A DNA stretch of 64,000 nt. Origin: a virus. The stretch's first letter is position 1. Each line of letters starts with the position of its first letter. The notes under the pieces were generated by a model that saw nothing but the letters and a program-made list of their open reading frames with translations, made no database searches and had not been told where the DNA came from. A program made the position numbers and the translations under genes. Positions 1,654-30,490 of the stretch are shown here, in pieces. Location: positions 3,109 through 67,108 of IMG/VR virus record IMGVR_UViG_3300045116_000679. One strand, 5' to 3'.

Positions 1654-3957
1654 TCACTCCGCGGCGAACAGAGGCATGTCGGCCGCAGGCCGGGCCCGGC
1701 GCTCGCGTAGCGCGTCCTCCCGGTAGTTCGCGGCGACCAAGATCTCGGCCATGCCGGGGCAGACCGAATTCCCGCACATGCGGCCCTGCTGTTCGAGCGT
1801 TAGGGGGATGATCGTCCCGTCCTCCAGCTCGCCGCGATCGATCGTGTAGTTCGGCCGGAAACCCTGGGCGTTGAACCGCTCGCGCGGGGTCAGCATCCGC
1901 ATGCCGATGTCGACGATGGCATAGGGCTCGCCCTGGATCGTCACCGTCACGACGCCGTGCCGGGGCTTCGCGGTGATCGTGTGCAGCGGGTCGGTGACCG
2001 GCTGTGATGGCAGGCCCTCCCCGTAATACTTCGCCAGGAAGGCGTAGACCGCGGCGGCGTGGTTCCCGCCTCCGGTGGCGGTCGGCGCGGGTGCGTCGAT
2101 CGGCGCATCCCGCCGGTCCGAGCCGCGCAGGTTGAGCATATGGGCGGCGACGACGCCCTGCTGGCAGCCCTTCTCCGTGATGGTCGAGACGGGCTCCTCG
2201 GCCGACTTCGCCGGCTGGCCCGGGTGCGACCCGGCGGTGTGCTGCGCGACGAAGGCGGCTACGACGGTCTGCTGTCCGCCCGAGGCGGTGACCGTCCGGA
2301 CCGGCTCCCGGACGTCCGAGCCCGGCTTGATCCCCTCGCCCCGCTCGCTGTTGTGCTGCGCCAGGAAGGCGGCGACGACCGCGGCCTTGCCGGCACCGCC
2401 GGCCGTGATCGTGCCGACCGGCTCATCCGCGGCCGAGCCGATCGACTGACCGAACTGCCGGGACAGGTGGACCGCCGCAAGGCTCCCCTCGTTCCCGGTA
2501 GGCACGATGACCGGCGCCGGCTCGTCCAGGGCGCGGGTCCGCGGCTCCTGGCCGGGGCGCTCGCCGTAGCGGGGGACGAGGAAGGGCGTCACCAAGTGCC
2601 CGGGGACGTTGTCGCCCGCGGTGATCGTCGCGGTCGGCTCCTCGACGCCGCGGACACGCGGCTCGTGGCCCGCTTTCTCCTGAAAGCGCGGCGCCAGGAA
2701 CGGCGCGACCACCGCGATCCCGCCCGCCGTCGCGATCGTGCTGACGGGCTCCTCCGCGCCGTGAACGCCCTTGCGCGCCGGGTCGCCGGAGGTCTGGTCG
2801 ACGCGGATCAGATGCGGGGCAACGATCCCGAGCGGCGCCGCGCCGACCCCGCGGGTTTCGCTCGCGTGCGCCGTTACCGTCGCCAGCGGCTGCTCTATCG
2901 GGTGCCCGGTGGCGCCGCGGTTGAACTTGGTCACGAAGGGCGCGACGACCGTGTTGTGGTCCTTCGGGCTGGCCGTGATCGTATGCAGCGGCGCCTCGAT
3001 ATCCCGGCTCGCGCCGCCCTGCTGAGCGTAGCTGACGAAGGGCGTGACCAAGGCTTCGCCACGGCCGCCGGTGAAGGTCGGGGCCGGCTCCTCGGCGCTA
3101 TGCGCGCGACCGCCCGTGCCGCCCCCGTGGTTGACCTGCACGAGGAAGGGCTTCGCCGCGTTGACGACGTAGCGCATCGTCCCCTTGGCGATCCGGGCCA
3201 TCGTGGCGTCCGCGAGCGGCCGGTTGGCGCGGATCCCGTGCTTCACCTTGATCTCGGCCGAGGTCTCGAAGATCGATGGGCAGGGCAGCGACCAGTCGAT
3301 GATCTCGGCCGCCGTGCGCCAGGGCTTCAGCCGCCCGGACCGGACCGCCTCGGACTTCGGGTCGCCGTGGGTCGGCTCCGGCCAGACGATCGGGCGGCCG
3401 TCCCGCCGCGCGATCCAGTAGAGGCGCTTGCGGATCGTGGGCACGCCGAAGTCGCAGGCGCGCAGCTCGCGGTGCTCGACCTTGTAGCCGAGCGCCTCCC
3501 AGGCGCCGACGTACTGCCGGAACGTGGCGCCGCGCTGTAGCGGGCAGGGGCGGCCGTCCTCAAGGAGCGGTCCCCAATCCGCGAACTCCTCGACGTTCTC
3601 CAGGAAGACCACTTTGGGCCGCTGCCAGCGCGGCAGGCGCTTGACCCAGCCGAGGACGGTCCAGGCGAGCCCGCGGATGTGCTTCTCGCGCGGCTTGCCG
3701 CCCTTGGCCTTGGAGTGGTGCTTGCAGTCGGGGCTCATCCAGAGCATCCCGATCGGGCGATCGCCGCACATCGCGCGAGCGTCGACCGTGACGACGTCCT
3801 CCTCGATGTGGTGCGTGTCCGGATGGTTGATCCGGTGCATCGCGAGCGCGATCGCGTCGTGATTCACTGCGATATCGGGATCCCGACCGAGCGCGGCCCG
3901 GATGCCCTCGGAAGCGCCGCCGCCGCCCGCGAAGGAGTCGATCACGAGAGGCCGCAT
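1654..3957 (-). CDS. DNA cytosine-5 methyltransferase with long repeat insertion
   Basis: FAGGGG (motif I), SPDCKHHS (PC-like motif IV), LENVEEF (VI), RKRLY (VIII), RMLTPRE...GNSVCP (IX-X). Confidence 0.92.
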   Translation of the reverse strand: MRPLVIDSFAGGGGASEGIRAALGRDPDIAVNHDAIALAMHRINHPDTHHIEEDVVTVDARAMCGDRPIGMLWMSPDCKHHSKAKGGKPREKHIRGLAWTVLGWVKRLPRWQRPKVVFLENVEEFADWGPLLEDGRPCPLQRGATFRQYVGAWEALGYKVEHRELRACDFGVPTIRKRLYWIARRDGRPIVWPEPTHGDPKSEAVRSGRLKPWRTAAEIIDWSLPCPSIFETSAEIKVKHGIRANRPLADATMARIAKGTMRYVVNAAKPFLVQVNHGGGTGGRAHSAEEPAPTFTGGRGEALVTPFVSYAQQGGASRDIEAPLHTITASPKDHNTVVAPFVTKFNRGATGHPIEQPLATVTAHASETRGVGAAPLGIVAPHLIRVDQTSGDPARKGVHGAEEPVSTIATAGGIAVVAPFLAPRFQEKAGHEPRVRGVEEPTATITAGDNVPGHLVTPFLVPRYGERPGQEPRTRALDEPAPVIVPTGNEGSLAAVHLSRQFGQSIGSAADEPVGTITAGGAGKAAVVAAFLAQHNSERGEGIKPGSDVREPVRTVTASGGQQTVVAAFVAQHTAGSHPGQPAKSAEEPVSTITEKGCQQGVVAAHMLNLRGSDRRDAPIDAPAPTATGGGNHAAAVYAFLAKYYGEGLPSQPVTDPLHTITAKPRHGVVTVTIQGEPYAIVDIGMRMLTPRERFNAQGFRPNYTIDRGELEDGTIIPLTLEQQGRMCGNSVCPGMAEILVAANYREDALRERRARPAADMPLFAAE

Positions 3958-4430
3958 CACTCCCCCCTCCCGGCCGCATCGGCGTTCTGATGCTGCGCAA
4001 GCAGGGCGTTCAGCAGGGCGAGCACCACAGCCGACGGGCCGTCCTCGTGCTCGCCCTTGCCCAGGACAGTGTCCGTCCCGAGCAGGAGCCGGCAAGAATA
4101 CGGCAGCTCCATCTCCGCGAGCCGGTGGTAGAGGAAGTTCACGCCGGGCAGCATGCGCTCGACGAGTCCGAAAGCAGCGTCGAGCGGCCCGGTGGCCCAG
4201 CGCAGTTGCCATGCCGGCCATTCCGACCAGACATCATCTTGGCCGGTGAACGGCTTCCGGCCGACGCACACGTAGATTTGGTGGGAGATGCGCGCTCTGG
4301 TGACGAAGGCGCCGTCCGGAGCGATGAACATAGCAGTCAGGTGCGCGCAAGTAATTGGTTCCAACTCGGACCGGGGATGAACAAGTTCGATCAGCGCGTG
4401 CAGCAAGGCGGGACTAGGCAGCGGGTTCAT
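3957..4430 (-). CDS. Hypothetical protein
   Basis: 157-aa ORF overlapping neighbours. Confidence 0.6.
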   Translation of the reverse strand: MNPLPSPALLHALIELVHPRSELEPITCAHLTAMFIAPDGAFVTRARISHQIYVCVGRKPFTGQDDVWSEWPAWQLRWATGPLDAAFGLVERMLPGVNFLYHRLAEMELPYSCRLLLGTDTVLGKGEHEDGPSAVVLALLNALLAQHQNADAAGRGE

Positions 4431-19823: not shown

Positions 19824-20986
19824 CTGCCCAGCACGAACTGCCTGCACCGCTGGTGCCGGCCGATACCGACATCTCCGGCTTCGGCTCGTTCATGCTCGAC
19901 GTCGACCGGCTGTTCGCCTCGGAACTCTGGGCGCTCTCCTCCGGCGAGGAGTTCAAGGCCGCGGTCGCGCTCTGGGGCCGGGCATGGCAGCAGACACCGG
20001 CGGGCTCGCTGCCCGACGACGAGCGCCTGCTGGCGGCCTTCTCGGGCGCCGGCAAGCGGTGGCCGAAGGTCCGCGAAGTCGCCATGCGCGGGTTCGTGAA
20101 ATGCAGCGACGGACGATTTTACCATCGGGTTTTGTGCGAGGACGTTCTCAAGGCCGCGCGGCTCAAGCGCGAGAGACTGGAGAGAACGCACAAGGCCTCC
20201 GAGGCTCGTCGCCGCAAGGGTGATGACTCGCCAAACCCTCCGTCGAGCGGCAAAAAACTCAATGGAGTCAACGAAACGGGCAATCGTCACGATCAACGTC
20301 ACGATGACCGTAACGATGTACGTGACGACCACCGTAACGATGTACGTCACGAGCACCGTCACGATGCGCACGCGCAGACCGTGACGACCAACGTAACGTG
20401 CTCCCATAGACAGGACAGGACAGGACCTAACAGTAGAAGAGAATCCCAACCGCCCGCGCTACAGCCAGACCCCGCGAGCCAAGGCCCCGGTGCCGCGGCC
20501 GGGGCGGCGGCCGTGCCCAGGGATTGGAACACCCGGGAGAATTTCGACCGGGTCGAGCGGCGCTGTCGCGAAGTCCTGCCCGGCACCTGGGTCGTCGACC
20601 CGCTCGTCAGCCCGATCGTCCGGCTGGAGGCGGACGGGCTCGACCTGGAGCGTGAGATCATCCCGGCCATCCTCGACATCGTCGCAGGATCCCGGGTGCC
20701 GATCCGGACTTGGTCGCTGCTCGCCAACCGCATCGCCGAGCGCGTCGCCGCTCAGCGCGCCAGCCGCGTTGCGGCCGGTCTCGGAGCCGTACCGCAGGCC
20801 GCCGCGGCACCCGAAGACCTCGTCGACCTCGGCGCCGCTTACGGCCGGCACAGCGAGGCGTCGCTACGACAGGCCATCGCGAATTTCCGCAGCACCGGCA
20901 ACTGGTTCGAGAGCGTTTTCGGACCGCCTCCGGGCGTCGCCGGCTGCCGCGTCCCCGCCCGCCTGCTGATCGCCGAGGCGGCCTGA
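19820..20986 (+). CDS. Replication initiator, DUF1376/YdaU-like
   Basis: FMLDVDRLFASELW...WQQTPAGSLPDDERLLA; internal iteron-like repeats. Confidence 0.8.
   Translation: MTAQHELPAPLVPADTDISGFGSFMLDVDRLFASELWALSSGEEFKAAVALWGRAWQQTPAGSLPDDERLLAAFSGAGKRWPKVREVAMRGFVKCSDGRFYHRVLCEDVLKAARLKRERLERTHKASEARRRKGDDSPNPPSSGKKLNGVNETGNRHDQRHDDRNDVRDDHRNDVRHEHRHDAHAQTVTTNVTCSHRQDRTGPNSRRESQPPALQPDPASQGPGAAAGAAAVPRDWNTRENFDRVERRCREVLPGTWVVDPLVSPIVRLEADGLDLEREIIPAILDIVAGSRVPIRTWSLLANRIAERVAAQRASRVAAGLGAVPQAAAAPEDLVDLGAAYGRHSEASLRQAIANFRSTGNWFESVFGPPPGVAGCRVPARLLIAEAA
20285..20400 (+). repeat. 12-bp iteron-like tandem repeats (putative replication origin)
   Basis: CGTCACGATCAA CGTCACGATGAC CGTAACGATGTA CGTGACGACCAC CGTAACGATGTA CGTCACGAGCAC CGTCACGATGCG, then two further copies. 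Confidence 0.75.
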
Positions 20987-21027
20987 CCCTTCACCCGGCG
21001 GCGAGGCCGCCATCGCAGGAGAGACCC

Positions 21028-21474
21028 ATGCCCGACGAAAAGCTCACCCTCAGCCTGGACGCCTCCCGGCCGCTGCTCGTCATGACCACAGCGAACCTCG
21101 TCGCGGCCTACGTCCAGCGCAACGCCGTGCCGGCCGCCGAGCTGCCCGGGCTGATCGCCTCGGTGCACGGCGCCCTGACCAGCCTCGGGCAGCCCGTGGA
21201 GCCCGTGGCCGAAGCGCCCGTCCCGCCGGTGCCGATCCGCAAGACCGTCACGCCGGACGCCATCATCAGCCTGGAGGACGGCCGGCCGTACAAGACCCTG
21301 CGCCGGCACCTCGCCGGGCGTGGGCTCACCCCCGAGCAGTACCGGGCGAAGTGGGGCCTTCCGCGGGACTACCCGATGACCGCCGCGAACTACGCCGCGC
21401 AGCGCTCCCAGCTCGCCAAGGCGGCCGGCCTGGGCGCCAGCCGGCGCAAGAACCCGCTTCCCGAAGCCGCCTGA
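21028..21474 (+). CDS. mucR: Ros/MucR-family transcriptional regulator
   Basis: LVAAYVQRNAVPAAELPGLIASVH...PVPIRKTVTPDAIISLEDGRPYKTLRRHL...GLTPEQYRAKWGLPRDYPMTA. Confidence 0.95.
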   Translation: MPDEKLTLSLDASRPLLVMTTANLVAAYVQRNAVPAAELPGLIASVHGALTSLGQPVEPVAEAPVPPVPIRKTVTPDAIISLEDGRPYKTLRRHLAGRGLTPEQYRAKWGLPRDYPMTAANYAAQRSQLAKAAGLGASRRKNPLPEAA

Positions 21475-21532
21475 CCGCCCGGCCCGGCGCGCCGCCGCCG
21501 GGCTCCCCTCGTCCCGCGTAGAGTGCCCGCCG

Positions 21533-22297
21533 ATGACCCCCAAGCAACGCCGCCGCCGCCGCCGCGACAAGGCCCGTCGCGAGAAGTCCCGGATCACGGC
21601 TGAGGCCGCCCGCGAGAGCCTGCACCGCCAGGGCGAGCTCGCCCAGGAAGCCCTCGCCGCCATGCAGGCCGACATCGAGGTCGCTCAGGCGGCCGGAGAC
21701 GGCGATGCTGCCCAGCCGGCGCCCCAGGAACCCGCGGGCGCCCCACAGCCCGCCCAAGGCGGCGGCAAGCGGCGCAAAACCGCTATCGACGCCGGACGCC
21801 GCTGGCACGTCGTCGTCGCCAAGCCGCGTTTCGCCCGCCGGGCCGTGAAGGATCTCGCCAAGGCCGGCATCCCGGCGGTGCTCACCGACGAGCGGGTCGA
21901 GCTGGTCGAGGAGAACGGCCGGCGCCGGATCGTGCAGCGCCAGCTCCTGCGCCGCGTGCTCTTCGTCGGCCTTACCGCGGCCGCTACCATCGAGGACGTC
22001 CACGATCGCACGTTCTTCGTCCGGGACGCCGTCCGCGATGGCCAGGGCCGCGCGATCCACGTCCCGCCCGCCGAGCTGCAGAACTTCGTCGATGGCCTCG
22101 CCGATACGCTCACCGAACGCGACCCGAACGCATACGAGGAAGGCGACGAGGTCCGCATCAAGTCCGGCCCCTTCGCTTCGTTCACCGGAATCGTCGAGGA
22201 GGCAGACTTCGCGTCGAGGCGACTCAAGGTAGCCGTGCAGATCTTCGGCCGCGCGAGCCCCGTTGGACTCGACTTCGCCGAGGTCGAGCGGGCTTGA
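21533..22297 (+). CDS. NusG-family (NGN+KOW) transcription antiterminator
   Basis: WHVVVAKP NGN start; EGDEVRIKSGPFASFTGIVEE...KVAVQIFGRASPV KOW domain. Confidence 0.88.
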   Translation: MTPKQRRRRRRDKARREKSRITAEAARESLHRQGELAQEALAAMQADIEVAQAAGDGDAAQPAPQEPAGAPQPAQGGGKRRKTAIDAGRRWHVVVAKPRFARRAVKDLAKAGIPAVLTDERVELVEENGRRRIVQRQLLRRVLFVGLTAAATIEDVHDRTFFVRDAVRDGQGRAIHVPPAELQNFVDGLADTLTERDPNAYEEGDEVRIKSGPFASFTGIVEEADFASRRLKVAVQIFGRASPVGLDFAEVERA

Positions 22298-22322
22298 CTC
22301 ACCGTCAGCCCGCGTTTTATGC
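22294..22322 (+). promoter_or_regulatory. Putative late promoter (pR'-like)
   Basis: TTGACT overlapping the NusG-like stop codon, AT-rich GTTTTATG at -10 spacing. Confidence 0.45.
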
Positions 22323-22324
22323 AG

Positions 22325-22910
22325 CTGCCAGGAGCAACCTGTGTGCGTAGGCGCTGACGTCCCCGGACCGATGCTTGCCCCCCAGGTCCCGGCCCACGTT
22401 GGCCCCGAGCGGGGATGAGCGAGGCAAAGGGCGGCTTGTGTCGAAAGCAGGCCGGCTCCGACCCCTTCACGAGATCGATGCGGCGGCGTGATGAAGCCGG
22501 CGAAGCAAGGTGGCCTCGCTGTCATGCCCCTCACGCGGGGAGTGAGTTGAACCGGCCCGCATCGACCGAGACGCAGGACCGACGCTCCGGGGATCGGCAC
22601 CCGTGACGCGAGGATCTGCGGGCGCCGCGGCCGCACACCGCGGCGCCACCCTATTCAGGCGGGAGATCCGCGAGAGCCCGATACCCCTCATGGGGCAGCA
22701 GGGCCGAAGCCCAGCCCGACCACGGACGCCCTCGGGCAAGTCGGGTGAACAGCGGACACGAGTTCGACGCGGCGACACGGTGAAAGGGCTTCGGCCCTGA
22801 GCCTCCGGGCGCTGCAACGCCCGGAGGCAATCCGGCAGCCGTAGAGCGCCCTCCGGGTCCCGGGCGTTCGTGATGTGAGGTTCAGGCCGGGCCTCACCCG
22901 CGTCGAGACC
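22325..22910 (+). ncRNA. Candidate large structured ncRNA
   Basis: No convincing ORF; many local hairpins and several 8-9 bp long-range complementary pairs; abuts tRNA. Confidence 0.6.
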
Positions 22911-22912
22911 AT

Positions 22913-22987
22913 TGCGGTGTGGGGCAGCGGCAGCCCGTCAGGTTCATACCCTGAAGGTCGAAGGTTCGAGTCCTTTCACCGCAACCA
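22913..22987 (+). tRNA. tRNA-Met(CAT), initiator-like
   Basis: Acceptor TGCGGTG/CACCGCA+ACCA, D arm GGGC/GCCC, anticodon arm TCAGG-TTCATAC-CCTGA, T arm GAAGG-TTCGAGT-CCTTT. Confidence 0.92.
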
Positions 22988-23311
22988 ACCACCACGATGA
23001 GACCGGCGATGTTCGAGATCGCGCGCAGCTCCTGGGCCGTCTACCGCGGATGGCGCCGCCTCGGCTCCGGGCTCCGTGAGAGCATCGGCGCGGCCGCCGG
23101 CTACTTCATCGCCTCGCGCCAGCAGCGCCGCCGCCTTCGCCAGGTGCACAGCCGCGTCGCGGTCCGGCCGATGAAGACCAGCCCCGCCCATCCCGCCTCG
23201 CCCCTCTACGGCGGCCACGTCTATCCGGACACCACCTGCGCCGCCGCGCACGGGCACGCCCCCGCCGGTGGGGATTGCGGCTCGGCCGGCGGCGAGTAAC
23301 CGAGAGTCACC

Positions 23312-23962
23312 ATGCCGGCACGCAACAAAGTTTCGCCTATTAAAAGAGCGGCGGCGCCCGAGATCGAGTTGCGCCCCCTCGATGAACTGACGCCTTACGT
23401 TAGGAACGCCCGCACCTACTCGCGGGAGCAGATCGAGCAGCTGAAGCAGTCGATCCTCACCTTCGGCTGGACCAACCCGATCCTGGCGGATGACAAGGGC
23501 ATCGTGGCGGGGCACGCCCGCTCGATCGCCGCGCGCGAGCTGTACGAGGCCGGCGAGACGCTTCGCTTCCCGGGCGGGGCCGAAATCTCGAGCGGCATGG
23601 TCCCCGTCGTCGACTGCACCGGATGGTCGGACGAGAAGCGGCGCGCCTACATCCTCGCCGACAACCAGCTGGCCCTCAACGCCGGCTGGGATCCGACGAT
23701 GCTGAACATCGAGTTCGGTGAGCTCGAGGCGGCGAACTTCGATTTGGCCCTGACCGGATTCACGCCGGCCCAGATCGAGGACTTCGCCGCGGCTGCCACC
23801 TCGCCCCCTGGGGGCGCCGCCAGCGGCATCGAGAACCCGCCGGAAAGCGCCTACCGCGAGCAGTACGGCGTCATCGTGGTGTGCGCCTCCGAGGCCGAGC
23901 AGCGCGACGTCTACGAGCGCCTCACCGGCGAGGGCCTTACCTGCAAGGTGGTGACCACATGA
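23312..23962 (+). CDS. ParB/Srx N-terminal domain protein
   Basis: LTPYVRNARTYS...FGWTNPILAD...IVAGHAR...AYILADNQL. Confidence 0.88.
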   Translation: MPARNKVSPIKRAAAPEIELRPLDELTPYVRNARTYSREQIEQLKQSILTFGWTNPILADDKGIVAGHARSIAARELYEAGETLRFPGGAEISSGMVPVVDCTGWSDEKRRAYILADNQLALNAGWDPTMLNIEFGELEAANFDLALTGFTPAQIEDFAAAATSPPGGAASGIENPPESAYREQYGVIVVCASEAEQRDVYERLTGEGLTCKVVTT

Positions 23963-25131
23963 AGGTCTCCGTCCGCAACCGCTGCTCTGACTTCACGTCG
24001 TACCGCGCCGCCCGGGTCAAGAGCCTGTTCAACGCCGAGAACGGCTGCAACTTCGACTTCGACGCCGACCTCGACATCGATGACGACGGCTGGTCGATCG
24101 GCGTCGTGGTGGGGCCGTCGGGCTCCGGCAAGACCTCGATCGGCTCGCGCATCTTCGGCGGCCCCGAGGCATTGTGGGCGCCCGAGTGGCCCGCCGATCG
24201 CCCGCTGGTGGACTGCATCGCCCCCGATGGTGACTTCGACGCGGTGACCTCCGCGCTGGGCTCCGTCGGCCTCGGCACCGTGCCGACTTGGCTGCGCCCA
24301 TACGCGGTGCTCTCGAACGGCGAGAAATTCCGGGCCGACCTCGCGCGCCTCGTGGTCGAGGCCCCGGCGGCCGCCGTGGTCGACGAGTTCACGTCCGTCG
24401 TCGACCGCCAGATCGCGAAGTTCGGCGCCCTCGCCTTCTCCAAGTCGTGGCGCCGCCTCAAGGGCTGCAAGGTCGTCCTCCTCACCCCCCATTACGACGT
24501 GATCGAGTGGCTGGAGCCCGATTGGGTCTTCGACACGGCGAAGAAGACCTCCGCAAGGGGGCGCCTTCGACGACCTAAATTCGATCTCGAAATCTGGAAG
24601 ACGGACGGCAGTTACTGGCCGTTGTTTGAGCCGCATCACTATCTGAAACTGCCCCGCATGGTCGGGGCGGCCTACTACGTGGGGACCGTGGACGGCGAAC
24701 TCGCCTGCCATCTCGCGGTGTCGTCGGCGAACAAAGGCGGGTCCGCCGAGGCTCGGGCTTGCCGTCTGGTCACCATGCCGGAGTGGCAGGGGGCCGGCGT
24801 CGGCTTCCGGTTCCTGAACGAGATCTGCGCCATGCAGGAGCATGGGTCACCGGACGCCCGACTTCCCGGCCGGTGCACGACCACGATGTTCCACACGAGT
24901 CACCCGCAGCTGTGCGCGGCGCTGCGCCGGGACAAGCGGTGGCGGCAGGTCAGCTGCAACATGCACGGCGTGAACAAGGGCAAGTCGGCGCGGACGGTGA
25001 AGGAGTCGAAGGCGCGCACGGGGGCGGGCCGCAAGTTCAACGTCGGCGCGACCGGCTATGGCGGACACCTGCGTGCCGCGCAAGGATTCCGCTACTACGG
25101 CGCCAAGGGCCTCGCCGCGGCGGCCGCCTAG
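23959..25131 (+). CDS. ABC-type ATPase fused to GNAT acetyltransferase-like domain
   Basis: GPSGSGKT, LSNGEKFR, VVDEFTS; C-terminal HHYL and RLVTMPEWQGAGVG (GNAT motif A). Confidence 0.85.
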   Translation: MKVSVRNRCSDFTSYRAARVKSLFNAENGCNFDFDADLDIDDDGWSIGVVVGPSGSGKTSIGSRIFGGPEALWAPEWPADRPLVDCIAPDGDFDAVTSALGSVGLGTVPTWLRPYAVLSNGEKFRADLARLVVEAPAAAVVDEFTSVVDRQIAKFGALAFSKSWRRLKGCKVVLLTPHYDVIEWLEPDWVFDTAKKTSARGRLRRPKFDLEIWKTDGSYWPLFEPHHYLKLPRMVGAAYYVGTVDGELACHLAVSSANKGGSAEARACRLVTMPEWQGAGVGFRFLNEICAMQEHGSPDARLPGRCTTTMFHTSHPQLCAALRRDKRWRQVSCNMHGVNKGKSARTVKESKARTGAGRKFNVGATGYGGHLRAAQGFRYYGAKGLAAAAA

Positions 25132-26668: not shown

Positions 26669-27178
26669 GTGGCCAAACGATCGAAGCCGGTGGCGCCGAC
26701 ACCGCCGCCCCCCGAGACCGAGCGCCGCAAAGGCGGGCGGCCGCCGTACGAGCCGACCAAGACCCACAGGGACTCGGTTCAGACGATGACCGCGTACGGC
26801 ATCCCGCAAGAGGAGATCGCCGCGGTCCTCGGCATCAGCCACGTCACGCTGCGCAAATACTACGCCCGCGAGATCGCGACCGGGGCCACCCTGGCGAACT
26901 CGAAGGTCGCCGAGGCGCTCTACCTGTCGGCCACGGGTGACGGCCCGCAGAAGGTCACGGCGCAGATCTTCTGGCTGAAGACCCGGGCCCGGTGGAAGGA
27001 ACCGCCGAAGGAAGTCAGCGGCCCCGGGGGCGGCCCGATCGCCACCGCGAATGTCGACCTGAGAAACCTCACCGATGAGCAACTTACGGCGCTCGAGTCT
27101 ATCTTCAGTGCGCTTGCCGGCGAGCCCGGCGGTGATGATGGCGGCACTGAGAGCGGAGAAGGCGAGGAGGGCGCGTGA
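26669..27178 (+). CDS. Terminase small subunit
   Basis: GRPPYEPT...GIPQEEIAAVLGIS..TLRKYY...AQIFWLKTRARW; upstream of TerL. Confidence 0.85.
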   Translation: MAKRSKPVAPTPPPPETERRKGGRPPYEPTKTHRDSVQTMTAYGIPQEEIAAVLGISHVTLRKYYAREIATGATLANSKVAEALYLSATGDGPQKVTAQIFWLKTRARWKEPPKEVSGPGGGPIATANVDLRNLTDEQLTALESIFSALAGEPGGDDGGTESGEGEEGA

Positions 27179-28619
27179 GGACGAGGCGCGCCGGATCGCG
27201 GAGGATGCCGAGCGGATCCGCGCGCGCTGCACGACGCTTCAGGGCTTCGTCCGCGAGGCGTGGCACATCCTCGAACCCCGGACGCCCTACGTCCACGGCT
27301 GGCACATCGATGCGATCTGCGACCACCTCCAGGCGGTCACTCGGGGCGAGATCAACCGGCTCCTGATCAACGTCCCGCCCGGCTCGTCCAAGAGCCTCCT
27401 CGCCTCCGTGCTCTGGCAGGCGTGGGAATGGGGCCCGGCCGGCCTCGCCTCGATGCGCTACCTGACGACGGCCTTCAACGACGGCCCGGTCAAGCGCGAC
27501 ACCCGCAAGGCCCGCGACCTGATCGGCTCGGACTGGTACCGGGCGCTCTGGCCGGAGGTGAGGCTGACCCGCACCGCGGAGATGAGCTTCGCCAACAGCC
27601 GGACCGGCACCCGCGAAGGAGTCGCGTTCCCCAGCCTGACGTCGCAGCGCGGCGACCGGCTCATCATCGACGACCCGCATTCGACCGAGACGGCCGAGAG
27701 CCCGGCCGAGCGGCTCAAGACCACCAGGCGGTTCCGCGAGGGCGCGGTCAACCGGCTCAACGACCAGGAGCGGAGCGCGATCGTCGTCATCATGCAGCGC
27801 CTGCACGAGGACGACGTCTCCGGCACCATCCTCAAGCACGGCATGGGGTACACGCACCTCTGCCTGCCGATGGAGTTCGAGCCTGACCGACGGTGCGTGA
27901 CCACCATCGGCTTCCGGGACCCGCGCACCGCCGCGGACGAGCTGCTCGACCCGGCCCGCTTCCCGGCGGCGACGGTCCGGCAGCTGCAGAACGACATGGG
28001 CAGCTACGCCTACGCCGGGCAGTACCAGCAGCGGCCGGCGCCGCGCGAGGGCGGGCTGTTCAAGCGGCACTGGTTCCCGATCGAGCGCGCCGCGCCCGCC
28101 GGGTGTACCTGGGTCAGGGCGTGGGACTTGGCGGCGAGCGAGGCCAAGGCCGGGAGCCAGCCGGCCTTCACGTGCGGCCTGCGGATCGGGCGGTCACCGG
28201 CCGGCCGCTACTTCATCGACGACGTCCGCCGCGATCGGCTCTCCCCCGGCAAGGTCGAGGAGCTGATCAAGAGGACCGCCCAGCAGGATCAAGCCGCGCG
28301 GCCCGGCTGCCGGATCTCCCTGCCGCAGGACCCGGGGCAGGCCGGCAAGGCGCAGGCGCAGTACCTCGTCGGTCAGCTCGCCGGGTTCGTCGTTCGGGCC
28401 ACGCCCGAGAGCGGCGACAAGGTCACCCGCGCCGAGCCCGTGTCCGCCCAGGCCGAGGCCGGCAACATCGTCCTGATCGAGGGGGCCTGGAATGAAGCGT
28501 TTCTCGATGAGGTCTCGTCGTTTCCAAGCGGCAGCTTCAAGGATCAGGTCGACGCACTCAGCCGCGGCTTCGGTGAGCTCGCGAAGCCGGCCTACGGGCT
28601 ACTAGGGGTCCTCGACTGA
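27135..28619 (+). CDS. Terminase large subunit
   Basis: INVPPGSSKS, IIDDPH, IMQRLHEDD, YQQRP, WDLA, KDQVDALS. Confidence 0.95.
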   Translation: MMAALRAEKARRAREDEARRIAEDAERIRARCTTLQGFVREAWHILEPRTPYVHGWHIDAICDHLQAVTRGEINRLLINVPPGSSKSLLASVLWQAWEWGPAGLASMRYLTTAFNDGPVKRDTRKARDLIGSDWYRALWPEVRLTRTAEMSFANSRTGTREGVAFPSLTSQRGDRLIIDDPHSTETAESPAERLKTTRRFREGAVNRLNDQERSAIVVIMQRLHEDDVSGTILKHGMGYTHLCLPMEFEPDRRCVTTIGFRDPRTAADELLDPARFPAATVRQLQNDMGSYAYAGQYQQRPAPREGGLFKRHWFPIERAAPAGCTWVRAWDLAASEAKAGSQPAFTCGLRIGRSPAGRYFIDDVRRDRLSPGKVEELIKRTAQQDQAARPGCRISLPQDPGQAGKAQAQYLVGQLAGFVVRATPESGDKVTRAEPVSAQAEAGNIVLIEGAWNEAFLDEVSSFPSGSFKDQVDALSRGFGELAKPAYGLLGVLD

Positions 28620-30490
28620 TGTGGTTCGTCGACACCTTCAAGAATTTGCTCTCCGGGCTCGGGACGGCCCGGGACAAGGCGAGCGCGAATGTGCACGTCT
28701 TCGTCCCGCGCACGCCGGACCAGATCCTGGCCGCCTACCGCGGCAACTGGATCGCCCGGAAGATCGTCGACATCGTGCCCTTCGACGAGCTGCGCGAGTG
28801 GCGCGCGTGGCAGGCCAAGCCGGCCGAAGTCCAGGCGATCGAAGAGGCCGAGAAGACGCTGCGCATCCCCGAGATCCTGCTGCGCGCGCGGCGGCTCGCA
28901 CGCCTTCAGGGTGGCTCGGTCATCGTCATCGGGGACGGGCAGACGGATCAGACCGTCCCGCTCGACCCGAAGCGGCTCAAGCAGGGCGGGATCAAGTGGC
29001 TGGCCGTGTTCGGCCGCTACGAGATCACCCCCGGTGAGCCGATCCGCGACCCGGCCTCGCCCTGGTTCGGCGAGCCGAGAATGTGGGAGCTGAACACCGA
29101 CGCCGGTCCTCAGCGCATCCACCCGTCCCGCGTCGTGCGTCTCGTAGGCGCCCCGATCCTCGAGGCGAACCACCTGGCGACCGAGCAGGGGTGGGGCGAC
29201 AGCATCCTGCAAGCCGTCTTCGACGCCGTCGATCAGGCGACCTCGTCCGCCGGCTACGTCAACGCGATGCTGCCCGAGGCCAAGCAGGATGTGATCTTCG
29301 TCCCCGGCCTCTCGACGCACCTCTCGACGGCGGCCGGGACGGCGGCTCTGACGAAGCGGTTCGAGTACGCCGCGCAGACGAAATCCGTGCTCGGGATGCT
29401 CCTCCTAGAAGGCGATGGTCGCTCGCCGGAGGGCGAGGTCTACCAGCAGAAGCAGCTCTCGTTCACGGGTCTGCCAGACGTCGTGCGGATGTTCCTGATG
29501 ATCGCCTCGGCCGCCGCGGACGTCCCGGCGACCCGGCTCCTCGGCCAGTCGCCGCAGGGGCTCAACGCGACCGGGGACTCTGACACCCGGAACTATTACG
29601 ACCACGTCGCCGCCCGGCAGAAGGTCGAGCTGACGCCCGCAATCGCGCGCCTCGACGAGTACCTGATCATCCACGCGCTCGGCACGCGCCCGCCTGAGAT
29701 CTGGTACGAGTGGCGCCCCCTCTACCAGCCGAGCCTCAAGGAACGGGCCGACGCCTTCCAGACCGTCGCCAATGCCATCGGGTCGCTCGCGACCGCGGCC
29801 GTCATGCCGGACGAGGTCCTGGCCGAGGGCGTGAAGGGCTGGGCGCAGGACAGCGGGTTGCTGCCGGGCATCGACGCCGCCTATCGGCGGGTCGGGACTC
29901 TCGTGCCGCGCCAGGGGAGCGAAGACGACCTCGGGCCGGACGGCCGGCCGATCGCCGGCAGCGGCCGGGATCCTGAGGGCGAGGACGAGCGCGGCAACGT
30001 GGTCCCCTTCCGGCGGGTCGTCGGCGACGCCACGCCGCGCACCCTCTACGTCTCGCGCAAGCTCAAGAACGGCGACGATCTGCTCGCCTGGGCGCGCAGC
30101 CAGGGCTTCACCGACCTGATGCCGGCCGGCGAGTTGCACGTCACGATCGCCTACAGCCGCACGCCGCTCGACTGGATGAAGGCCGGGCAGACCTGGCAGG
30201 GCGAGGAGCTGAAGATCAGCGCCGGTGGCCCGCGCGTCATCGAGCGGTTCGGCGAGGCGACCGTCCTTCTGTTCGCCTCGGACGAACTACGGTGGCGCTG
30301 GCAGGAGATCCGGGACGCGGGCGCCTCGTGGGATCATCCCGAGTATCAGCCGCACGTCACCTTCACGTGGGCGGCCGGGAACGTCGATCTGTCCAAGGTC
30401 CAACCGTACAACGGTCCGCTGATTTTGGGCCCCGAGATCTTCGAACCGGTCGATGAGGACTGGCGGGCCAAGATCGAGGCCGCCGAGTAG
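28619..30490 (+). CDS. Portal protein (DUF1073) with C-terminal 2H-phosphoesterase (Acb1/T4 gp57B-like) domain
   Basis: WIARKIVDIV, RIHPSRV, VPATRLLGQSPQGLNATG; C-terminal HVTIAYS and YQPHVTF (two HxT motifs). Confidence 0.88.
   Translation: MWFVDTFKNLLSGLGTARDKASANVHVFVPRTPDQILAAYRGNWIARKIVDIVPFDELREWRAWQAKPAEVQAIEEAEKTLRIPEILLRARRLARLQGGSVIVIGDGQTDQTVPLDPKRLKQGGIKWLAVFGRYEITPGEPIRDPASPWFGEPRMWELNTDAGPQRIHPSRVVRLVGAPILEANHLATEQGWGDSILQAVFDAVDQATSSAGYVNAMLPEAKQDVIFVPGLSTHLSTAAGTAALTKRFEYAAQTKSVLGMLLLEGDGRSPEGEVYQQKQLSFTGLPDVVRMFLMIASAAADVPATRLLGQSPQGLNATGDSDTRNYYDHVAARQKVELTPAIARLDEYLIIHALGTRPPEIWYEWRPLYQPSLKERADAFQTVANAIGSLATAAVMPDEVLAEGVKGWAQDSGLLPGIDAAYRRVGTLVPRQGSEDDLGPDGRPIAGSGRDPEGEDERGNVVPFRRVVGDATPRTLYVSRKLKNGDDLLAWARSQGFTDLMPAGELHVTIAYSRTPLDWMKAGQTWQGEELKISAGGPRVIERFGEATVLLFASDELRWRWQEIRDAGASWDHPEYQPHVTFTWAAGNVDLSKVQPYNGPLILGPEIFEPVDEDWRAKIEAAE

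Follow-up and report, generated by a model that had tools for sequence, protein, structure and literature searches.

The window analyzed here is a stretch of 64,000 nucleotides (nt), positions 3,109 to 67,108 of the IMG/VR record IMGVR_UViG_3300045116_000679, and forms a portion of that record, a 67-kb provirus. It contains a gap bounded on the left by a 254-amino-acid (aa) open reading frame (ORF) encoding a NusG-like protein (21533-22297, + strand) and on the right by a tRNA-Met gene (22913-22987). A first-pass annotation had proposed that 22325-22910 is one ornate RNA of about 590 nt, GOLLD-like or new, or else an antitermination leader. Comparison of related loci, designated here by L numbers, indicates that the gap is not one conserved 590-nt RNA, because relatives gain and lose its parts independently. 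Its 5' part is a core motif (22329-22452, + strand) that sequence comparison identifies as a conserved structured leader RNA. With moderate confidence, we interpret the region as the leader of a late operon, whose 5' RNA would bring about processive antitermination by recruiting the phage NusG paralog or cooperating with it; of the options raised at first, the antitermination leader fits the anatomy of the region best.

Core motif and its co-occurrence with a NusG-like gene

The first ~120 nt were nearly identical in all four close loci. Distant loci found through their NusG-like proteins (31-44% identity) contained CCGGCCCACG, a variable insert, and CGAGGC approximately 100-140 nt past the NusG-like stop codon. 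Viral contigs were scanned with the pattern CCCGGCCCACG-N5-35-CGAGGC, which gave at least 120 sites; among the matches listed (at least 120), nine had a NusG-like hidden Markov model match no more than 1.3 kb upstream. An alignment of 17 sequences (A7) was converted into a covariance model, R1, whose occurrence figures cover viral loci. The motif was assigned to 22 loci, with the window copy scoring 72.5 bits. Nineteen loci scored 45.8-94 bits under R1, including L095 (79.7 bits) and L105 (50.3 bits), neither of which had been used in building the model. The variant-motif loci resembling L023 scored 31.1 bits (L025), 28.1 bits (L026), and 18.6 bits (L015), and were accepted by context, not by score; the top nonmember, a coding-like pattern match, scored 27.4 bits.

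A set of 12 loci was compiled starting from the protein (the window, L003, L009, L010, L013, L014, L015, L017, L023, L025, L026, and L027). The exact CCGGCCCACG...CGAGGC motif was present in eight of these loci, and variants found by the model were present in L025, L026, and L015, giving 11 of the 12 in total. L027 was the sole member of this set without the invariant motif under R1. Its downstream gap (L027:3013-3150) begins CAGGATGATCC...GGACCCGG, a similar 5' end by eye, and L027 may hold a diverged version of the motif that R1 missed. Every scorable motif carrier has a NusG paralog upstream; in L105, the NusG-like match lies 2.3 kb upstream of the motif, and locus L095 ends before the position of the gene. 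Judged by these comparisons, the core motif co-occurs with the NusG-like gene. Scans of bacterial genome contigs returned one NusG-like match, 31% identical, in Gemmatimonadota, two chance pattern matches in Actinomycetota coding DNA, and otherwise nothing.

Covariation in homologs, which the first-pass annotation had named as a test of the RNA, was found both in helix P1 of the core and in module F (described below), and comparative analysis identifies the core motif as a structured RNA with a covarying P1. Helix P1 (22337-41 with 22383-87) joins the bases after the 5' CAGG(A/U)UA to the bases before CCCGG and encloses a variable hairpin. On A7, 84.6% of the P1 cells were paired, compared with 59.9 ± 3.3% after shuffling (0 of 500 shuffles as high), and both-side changes occurred in six of seven pairs. 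The covariation score was 0.591 versus 0.186 for shuffled alignments (0 of 500), and slid registers paired at 50% or less. In the 22-sequence model-based alignment, which leans towards the model, 85.5% of the cells were paired. The duplex formed with the own partner had an energy of -11.5 kcal/mol, versus -7.95 ± 0.62 kcal/mol with swapped partners (0 of 20000).

RNAalifold also recovered P1 and independently proposed P2. P2 (22392-94 and 22397-98 paired with 22420-21 and 22423-25) consists of GCC-CA-CG with CG-A-GGC and has a CA/A internal loop. It unites the two invariant blocks in one helix, and its unvarying pairs carry no covariation information. The variable inserts stack on P2, with 23 pairs over 16 distinct inserts versus 8.2 ± 3.2 after shuffling (0 of 5000), a count in which one row was mis-parsed and bulged cases are undercounted. 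The remaining parts of the core are hairpin Pb (22359-68), the cap Pc (22403-14), and the Pd region (22429-45). Pd, a short GGG...CCC helix after P2, is weak (69.7% paired), and in L099, L121, L035, and L013 its C-run also belongs to Pe, a long terminator hairpin with U-rich tails behind it.

A promoter-like element precedes the core (22294-22322, + strand). It comprises TTGACT at 22294-99, a 17-nt spacer, and TTATGC at 22317-22; the TTGACT box overlaps the TGA stop codon of the NusG-like gene (22295-97), and the core begins ~7 nt past the element. A TTG[AC]NN box was located 34-36 nt ahead of the CAGG start in 19 of the 22 loci, and TTGTGA occupied the same place in the remaining three, L025 reading TTGTGA-N17-TATAAT. 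In most loci the box overlaps the NusG-like stop codon, and in the four closest loci the spacer varied in sequence and was constant in length. This arrangement suggests that the 22294-22322 element may function as a promoter. Directly past the motif, L017, L099, and L121 have strong terminators consisting of a hairpin and a U-tract; some other loci have weaker ones. A loose terminator scan was positive in 14 of the 22 loci, convincingly so in these three, and returned none in the window, L003, L009, L074, and L095. The first sizeable downstream ORF in 10 sampled loci encoded a terminase small or large subunit in six; in the other four it was an HNH endonuclease, a minor tail protein, a lipase-like protein, and an ORF with no match.

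The 254-aa protein upstream of the gap is a member of the NusG family with NGN and KOW domains. Its Pfam NusG and KOW matches were just above the cut-off, PHROG 6386 ("transcription antiterminator") matched with an E value of 2e-19, and solved NusG chains in the PDB matched residues 124-254 at about 1e-16. The NCBIfam nusG model scored 69.9 versus a cut-off of 135.7 (E 2e-19), and the NCBIfam subfamily scores stayed below their cut-offs (UpxY, 44.7 versus 100; RfaH, 34 versus 144.5; LoaP, 21.9 versus 125). An AlphaFold2 model built from a 16-sequence alignment had a mean predicted local distance difference test score (pLDDT) of 83; it comprised a helix at residues 3-55 (pLDDT above 90), a disordered linker at 58-80, an alpha/beta NGN domain at 90-190, and a 5-strand beta-barrel KOW domain at 206-253. 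An N-terminal extension of 39-88 aa containing 20-44% Arg and Lys was present in 13 of the 16 aligned relatives, and the three relatives without it may be truncated calls. In the window (21533-21790), the protein starts MTPKQRRRRRRDKARRE and is predicted to begin with a single 53-residue helix. The Arg-rich extension has no counterpart in NusG, RfaH, or LoaP. Close relatives of the protein are few: two with the source label Methylobacterium nodulans were 69% identical, and an exhaustive protein search gave three representatives at E values of 1e-30 or lower. A tblastn search of GenBank phages returned only housekeeping NusG in mis-filed Salmonella records and a megaphage; therefore, no cultured phage is known to carry the system.

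Genomic setting and modular composition of the gap

The genes located 5' of the gap encode DnaB, DUF1376, Ros/MucR, and NusG-like proteins (Pfam). On its 3' side are a 100-aa ORF (22997-23299, + strand), which is the first late-side ORF, and genes with PHROG matches to a ParB-like/methyltransferase-like protein (23312-23962, + strand), the terminase large subunit (27075-28619, + strand), the portal (28619-30490, + strand), and head proteins. With early-type genes upstream and late genes downstream, the gap therefore lies at an early/late boundary. The Ros/MucR-type zinc-finger regulator encoded by this prophage just upstream of the NusG-like gene (window 20710-21474; Pfam E 1e-43) may serve the phage as an early regulator of its own or may mimic a xenogeneic silencer. 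The codon-position GC periodicity (maximum minus minimum) was 0.3-0.57 in the flanking genes versus 0.03-0.15 at ~22250-22950, and third-position (GC3) periodicity resumed from ~23000. Because the periodicity vanishes between ~22250 and 22950, the gap is noncoding on both strands, several chance ORFs notwithstanding. A small protein in 22415-22606 was considered and rejected; GC3 periodicity was lacking, and the ORF is shortened to 10 codons in L003.

All of the complementary pairs and hairpins listed in the first-pass annotation were found in the sequence. A repeat search recovered 22360-70/22583-93, 22418-25/22513-20, 22475-83/22557-65, and 22764-72/22898-906, together with the 10-bp hairpin at 22621-47 and the 14-nt arms at 22801-28, and the GGATCT (22612-17)/AGATCC (22664-69) pair was confirmed by direct reading. 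The region contained 14 perfect inverted 9-mer pairs versus 2.3 ± 2.1 in 500 dinucleotide shuffles, two of which were as high, and this number was reached in just 0.9% of 212 natural 615-nt windows from the same 64 kb. The folding energy of the whole 615 nt corresponded to z = -2.2 on the + strand and -2.4 on the - strand (20 shuffles each). With 200 shuffles per segment, z was +0.58 for 22327-22450, -1.3 for 22470-22570, -3.25 for 22600-22762, and -3.66 for 22760-22912. The proposed comparison of folding energy with dinucleotide shuffles was thus positive for the 3' half and negative for the 5' core; the 3' half is thermodynamically unusual, and the best-conserved 5' part is not.

A single large RNA of the GOLLD or ROOL kind, held together by long-range pairs, would account for a long, noncoding region beside a tRNA gene in a phage, with inverted repeats above chance and a 3' half that folds better than shuffles. 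GOLLD and ROOL are likewise borne by phages or prophages, adjoin tRNA genes, and are noncoding and highly structured. The Rfam check suggested at first was negative, only tRNA being matched. A covariance scan of the whole window against Rfam 15 at the gathering level gave tRNA only, and a scan of 22200-23100 at E ≤ 10 gave tRNA and chance-level hairpin matches (htlv_FSE and Scr6925) only, with no match to the GOLLD, ROOL, HEARO, or group I/II intron models; five related loci scanned at E ≤ 1 gave tRNAs only. A blastn search with the region returned only tRNA genes from GenBank phages and no match from plasmids. A tmRNA, a Y RNA, and a retron, prompted by TTCGAYG and T-loop-like pieces, were rejected, there being no ARAGORN tmRNA, Rfam match, or reverse transcriptase gene.

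The relatives retain only subsets of the parts, and no architecture of more than 500 nt was conserved as a unit in L003, L009, or L010. In L003, a 400-nt gap leads directly into the ParB-like gene, without the tRNA and without everything past the equivalent of ~22600. L009, which represents the same place as L005, is without the whole 22475-22565 module and carries an odd tRNA-like gene followed by a 22764/22898-type domain with a different interior, and L010 has a tRNA-Thr in mid-gap and the 22696-22758 block in common with the window. The stem 22475/22557 held up in the comparison, being preserved in L003. The long-range pairs 22360/22586 and 22418/22513 had no counterpart in L003, L009, or L010; a local 3-5-bp hairpin at 22359-68 takes the place of the former and covaries (GUC/GAC, GCC/GGC, GGC/GCC, and GCCCC/GGGGC across relatives), and the latter would link the invariant motif with a dispensable module. 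Furthermore, the z value of the whole region was modest and equalled by the opposite strand. We consider one large RNA highly improbable; what distinguishes this region from GOLLD and ROOL is a composition of modular ~90-150-nt units that occur independently and match none of the corresponding covariance models.

Module B (22474-22566, + strand) is a variable domain closed by TCGATGCGG / CCGCATCGA. Its stem is identical in L003, where the interior is different, and the whole module is absent from L009. The L003 copy was a weak match to the module F model (25.2 bits, E about 1e-3), and the window copy gave no match to that model at E ≤ 1. Module B is followed by the conserved linker CGAGACGCAGGACC (22567-22580, + strand), of which CGAGACGCAG is common to the window, L003, and L009. 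Hairpin D, the 10-bp GC hairpin from the repeat search (22621-22647, + strand), has no U tract after it; hairpins of other sequence stand at the corresponding place before the tRNA-like gene in L009 and before tRNA-Thr in L010. Module E (22696-22758, + strand; GGCCGAAGCC...GACCACGGA.GCCCTCGGGC..GTCGGGTGAACAGCGG) is conserved in L010 at 4113-4175, after tRNA-Thr, as compared by eye, and the window copy lies within the stretch with z = -3.25. Positions 22699-22712, in the GGGCCGAAGCCC hairpin of module E, are complementary at all 14 nt to positions 22786-22799, in the GGGCTTCGGCCC hairpin of module F. The match could represent a kissing pair or an alternative pairing, or the two hairpins may just both be palindrome-like.

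The domain closed by 22764-72/22898-906, described at first as a multi-helix domain, is supported as a conserved multi-helix RNA by its homologs and their compensatory changes. Of its proposed details, the closing stem is conserved, the cUUCGg loop is CCCG in L009, and no copy other than that of the window has the 11-bp hairpin (22801-28). This module F (22762-22908, + strand) has homologs in L009/L005, L084, L148, and L149 and consists of the closing stem (22763-72/22898-907), an ACGGT/GCCGT helix, the hairpin at 22785-98, and two further arms. RNAalifold applied to five copies predicted 41 pairs, 10 of them with both-side changes, although with 5 sequences from 4 lineages the power was low. 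The 9-bp closing stem had both-side changes in five of its nine pairs, and the other predicted helices were ACGGU/GCCGU, an AGGGC-loop-GCCCU hairpin, and two or three further arms. The module F model, R2, scored these copies at 115-177 bits. The alignment contained 26 G-U cells and one A-C cell; therefore, the + strand is the folded strand. Taken together, the comparisons point to module F as an independent conserved RNA, and the core motif and module F are two candidate RNA families without a match in Rfam 15.

In L149:1-600 (- strand), module F is accompanied by a second stem-closed element that has the same closing-stem sequence and scored weakly under R2 (21 bits), with no NusG-like gene in view. 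The two elements flank a small ORF with a twin-arginine-like start, beside a serine-recombinase-like ORF (by eye). This arrangement suggests that the modules may move independently. A distance of 5-12 nt separates module F from the tRNA gene that follows it in the window, L084, and L148.

The tRNA-Met (CAT) of the window (22913-22987, + strand) was identified by ARAGORN and by Rfam RF00005 (65.3 bits). L074, L095, and L009 likewise have a tRNA-Met after the core motif; in two distant relatives (L074:1157-1233 and L095, - strand), it lies within ~30 nt of the motif. Because it recurs after the core in distant relatives, the tRNA-Met is a recurrent feature of the late-operon head and is not specific to the window. 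Module F is complementary to the 3' part of tRNA-Met (22778-22790/22969-22981; 13 nt, 92%), and hairpin D is complementary to its 5' part (22624-22641/22914-22931; 18 nt, 89%). By eye, the module F complementarity was weaker with the L009 tRNA-Met and absent with the L084 tRNA-Thr, and pairing of hairpin D and module F with tRNA-Met was rejected as a conserved feature. The tRNA-like gene of L005 (9137-9238, - strand), at the place of L009:3997-4093, is 97-102 nt long with ~25 extra bases in the anticodon arm; ARAGORN reported it as "tRNA-???" with anticodon gggc, and the Rfam tRNA model gave 47 bits. A phage tRNA that contains an intron or has degenerated is one possible identity.

Proposed antitermination mechanism and alternative explanations

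In the proposed mechanism, 22294-22912 would comprise the promoter and untranslated leader of the prophage late (packaging/structural) operon. Transcription would start ~7 nt past a promoter whose -35 box overlaps the NusG-like stop codon, and the first ~124 nt (22329-22452) would fold into P1 around a variable hairpin and then into P2 with its invariant base and internal loop. This RNA may act in cis as the loading site for the adjacent NusG paralog, which would bind P2 through its Arg-rich N-terminal helix and RNA polymerase through its NGN domain. By analogy with lambda N, the Arg-rich helix is likely to be the RNA-binding part. The polymerase would then resist downstream terminators and GC-rich hairpins, and the phage would thereby shift from early to late genes, as with lambda Q/pR'-tR' and the Bacillus LoaP/leader hairpin. 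In the Methylobacterium-type lineage, the leader would have been enlarged by the inserted modules B, D, E, and F and by tRNA-Met. We infer promoter activity, a transcript, protein-RNA binding, and antitermination, and we favor the core as a loading RNA because the order of gene, promoter, RNA, terminator, and late gene parallels lambda Q and, more closely, LoaP.

Several observations weigh against this mechanism. A scan of 21500-24000 for consensus sigma-70 promoters called none, and no + strand intrinsic terminator was found past the window copy in the same interval, nor by the looser scan. Folding energy does not set the core motif apart from shuffles (z = +0.58). In the 11 loci collected by pattern, CCCGGCCCACG and CGAGGC are invariant by design of the search. 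In L025, L026, and L105, 1.3-2.3 kb of other DNA separates the gene from the motif, and all carriers belong to related phages that have one gene order in common; co-occurrence could thus reflect inherited synteny and not functional coupling.

The core might be a self-contained attenuator or riboswitch-like leader that chooses between Pd and the overlapping Pe, the NusG-like protein being uninvolved. A terminator behind a multi-helix junction whose junction nucleotides are invariant would suit such a leader, as would the overlap of the terminator 5' strand (GCCCCG) with the Pd 3' strand in L099, L121, L035, and L013 and the distance of 1.3-2.3 kb between the motif and the NusG-like gene in three loci. 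However, the motif is kept in the window, L003, L009, L074, and L095 despite the lack of a terminator, no ligand-type Rfam family was matched, and a NusG paralog lies upstream in every scorable carrier, so that we consider this explanation unlikely. Stable trans-acting small RNAs (sRNAs), namely, a ~130-nt core transcript (similar to lambda 6S but functional) and/or module F, are likewise doubtful, and we assign a similarly low probability to their excision together with the tRNA from a precursor by RNase P, RNase Z, or RNase E. The short forms in L017, L099, and L121, in which a promoter, ~110-150 nt, and a terminator make a complete small unit, would be consistent with sRNAs; the same can be said of module F, which immediately precedes a tRNA in three loci, occurs away from any NusG-like gene in L149, and has G-U pairs showing that the + strand folds. 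On the other hand, no target complementarity was identified, the core is always sense-oriented at the head of the late operon, consistent with a role in cis, and the 13-nt complementarity between module F and tRNA-Met was not maintained in L009 and L084.

It is also conceivable, though considerably less probable than either a self-contained leader or sRNAs, that modules B and F and their relatives are mosaic repeats at the DNA level (REP- or MITE-like elements or recombination sites) with no RNA function. Similar inverted repeats of 9-10 nt (TCGAYGCGG / CCGCRTCGA) border the modules, which are gained and lost between close relatives, and two elements lie beside the ORF in L149 that resembles a serine recombinase by eye only. 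Yet several internal helices of module F keep their pairing through both-side changes, the ratio of 26 G-U to one A-C cells is the strand asymmetry expected of RNA, and TTCGAYGCGG shows no clear excess in the 64 kb, with four matches versus 1.0 expected, a number reached by one of 100 shuffles.

Relation to known systems and significance

A handful of processive antitermination systems have been described (N-nut, Q, put, RfaH-ops, and LoaP-hairpin). In the lambda Q system, the regulator gene lies directly upstream of the late promoter, and a short transcript terminates unless the polymerase is modified. The region studied here is similar to lambda Q/pR'-tR' (6S RNA) in having an upstream regulator, a promoter-proximal RNA, a terminator in relatives, and terminase and structural genes behind it. 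The Q proteins differ in that they are not NusG-like and load via a promoter DNA site and a sigma-dependent pause; here, the regulator is NusG-like, and the conserved element lies downstream of the predicted start and covaries as RNA. RfaH/ops also offers a specialized NusG paralog, recruitment by a leader element, and horizontally acquired operons. However, ops is a 12-nt non-template DNA signal, the RfaH score here was 34 versus 144.5, and the C-terminal domain of free RfaH is an alpha-hairpin, whereas the model of the present protein predicts a beta-barrel KOW domain.

The closest parallel is LoaP, a NusG paralog of Bacillus velezensis that, according to PMC12691694, requires a small leader RNA hairpin for read-through of the leader terminator. 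As in the dfn and mln operons described there, a NusG paralog lies beside its target operon, which has a long leader with a conserved hairpin and then an intrinsic terminator (PMC12691694). By analogy, the conserved hairpin P2 and the terminators past the motif in relatives would give the present leader a LoaP-type anatomy. The differences are that our protein scored 21.9 versus 125 bits with the LoaP model and has an extra 87-aa N-terminal part with the Arg-rich helix, that the RNA is predicted to be a ~124-nt two-domain fold and not a single UNCG hairpin, and that a late operon of phages would be the target, in high-GC prophages of the Alphaproteobacteria type.

BrrG, as outlined in a preprint (bioRxiv 10.1101/2024.11.20.624540), is an alphaproteobacterial, Q21-like protein of the Bartonella gene transfer agent that acts on the long attenuating bgtA-K leader. 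It thus provides an alphaproteobacterial late-type antitermination with a long leader, but it is Q21-like and not NusG-like. In lambda N-nut, an Arg-rich peptide reads a nascent RNA hairpin and the complex travels with the polymerase, according to the relevant passages of PMC7819879. An Arg-rich peptide and a hairpin preceded by a conserved linear element are proposed here as well; however, N is small and disordered and borrows host NusG, whereas the present helix is fused to an NGN-KOW body, and no boxA- or boxB-like sequence was found in this region. HK022 put, according to PMC9378689, is a promoter-proximal, cis-acting, two-stem nascent RNA that renders the polymerase resistant to termination. 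It is protein-independent and has no sequence or Rfam relation to the motif, which is tied to a NusG-like gene. In the sections considered, reviews of NusG paralogs mention prophage rfaH-like genes in passing only (PMC7593976, PMC7819879). In our literature search, which did not extend to supplements, no phage NusG paralog paired with a leader RNA was described, and the data sets of PMC7593976 may list such genes.

Somewhat more tentatively than the leader itself, we propose that the region represents a new antitermination system, in which a NusG paralog fused to an N-like Arg-rich helix and a ~110-150-nt leader RNA (the P1 junction and the invariant P2 hairpin) would replace Q in temperate phages of the alphaproteobacterial type, together with a second new family, the module F RNAs, which accompany phage tRNA genes and are also found by themselves. 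The analysis adds two candidate RNA families and sets right the tempting view that the region is a giant RNA similar to GOLLD. If the proposed mechanism is true, antitermination principles would be newly combined in a phage NusG paralog that has a structured RNA partner of its own. One protein, one ~124-nt RNA, and one terminator would make a compact, testable system, providing a handle on the RNA targeting of NusG-like factors and on the timing of late genes in non-lambdoid temperate phages.

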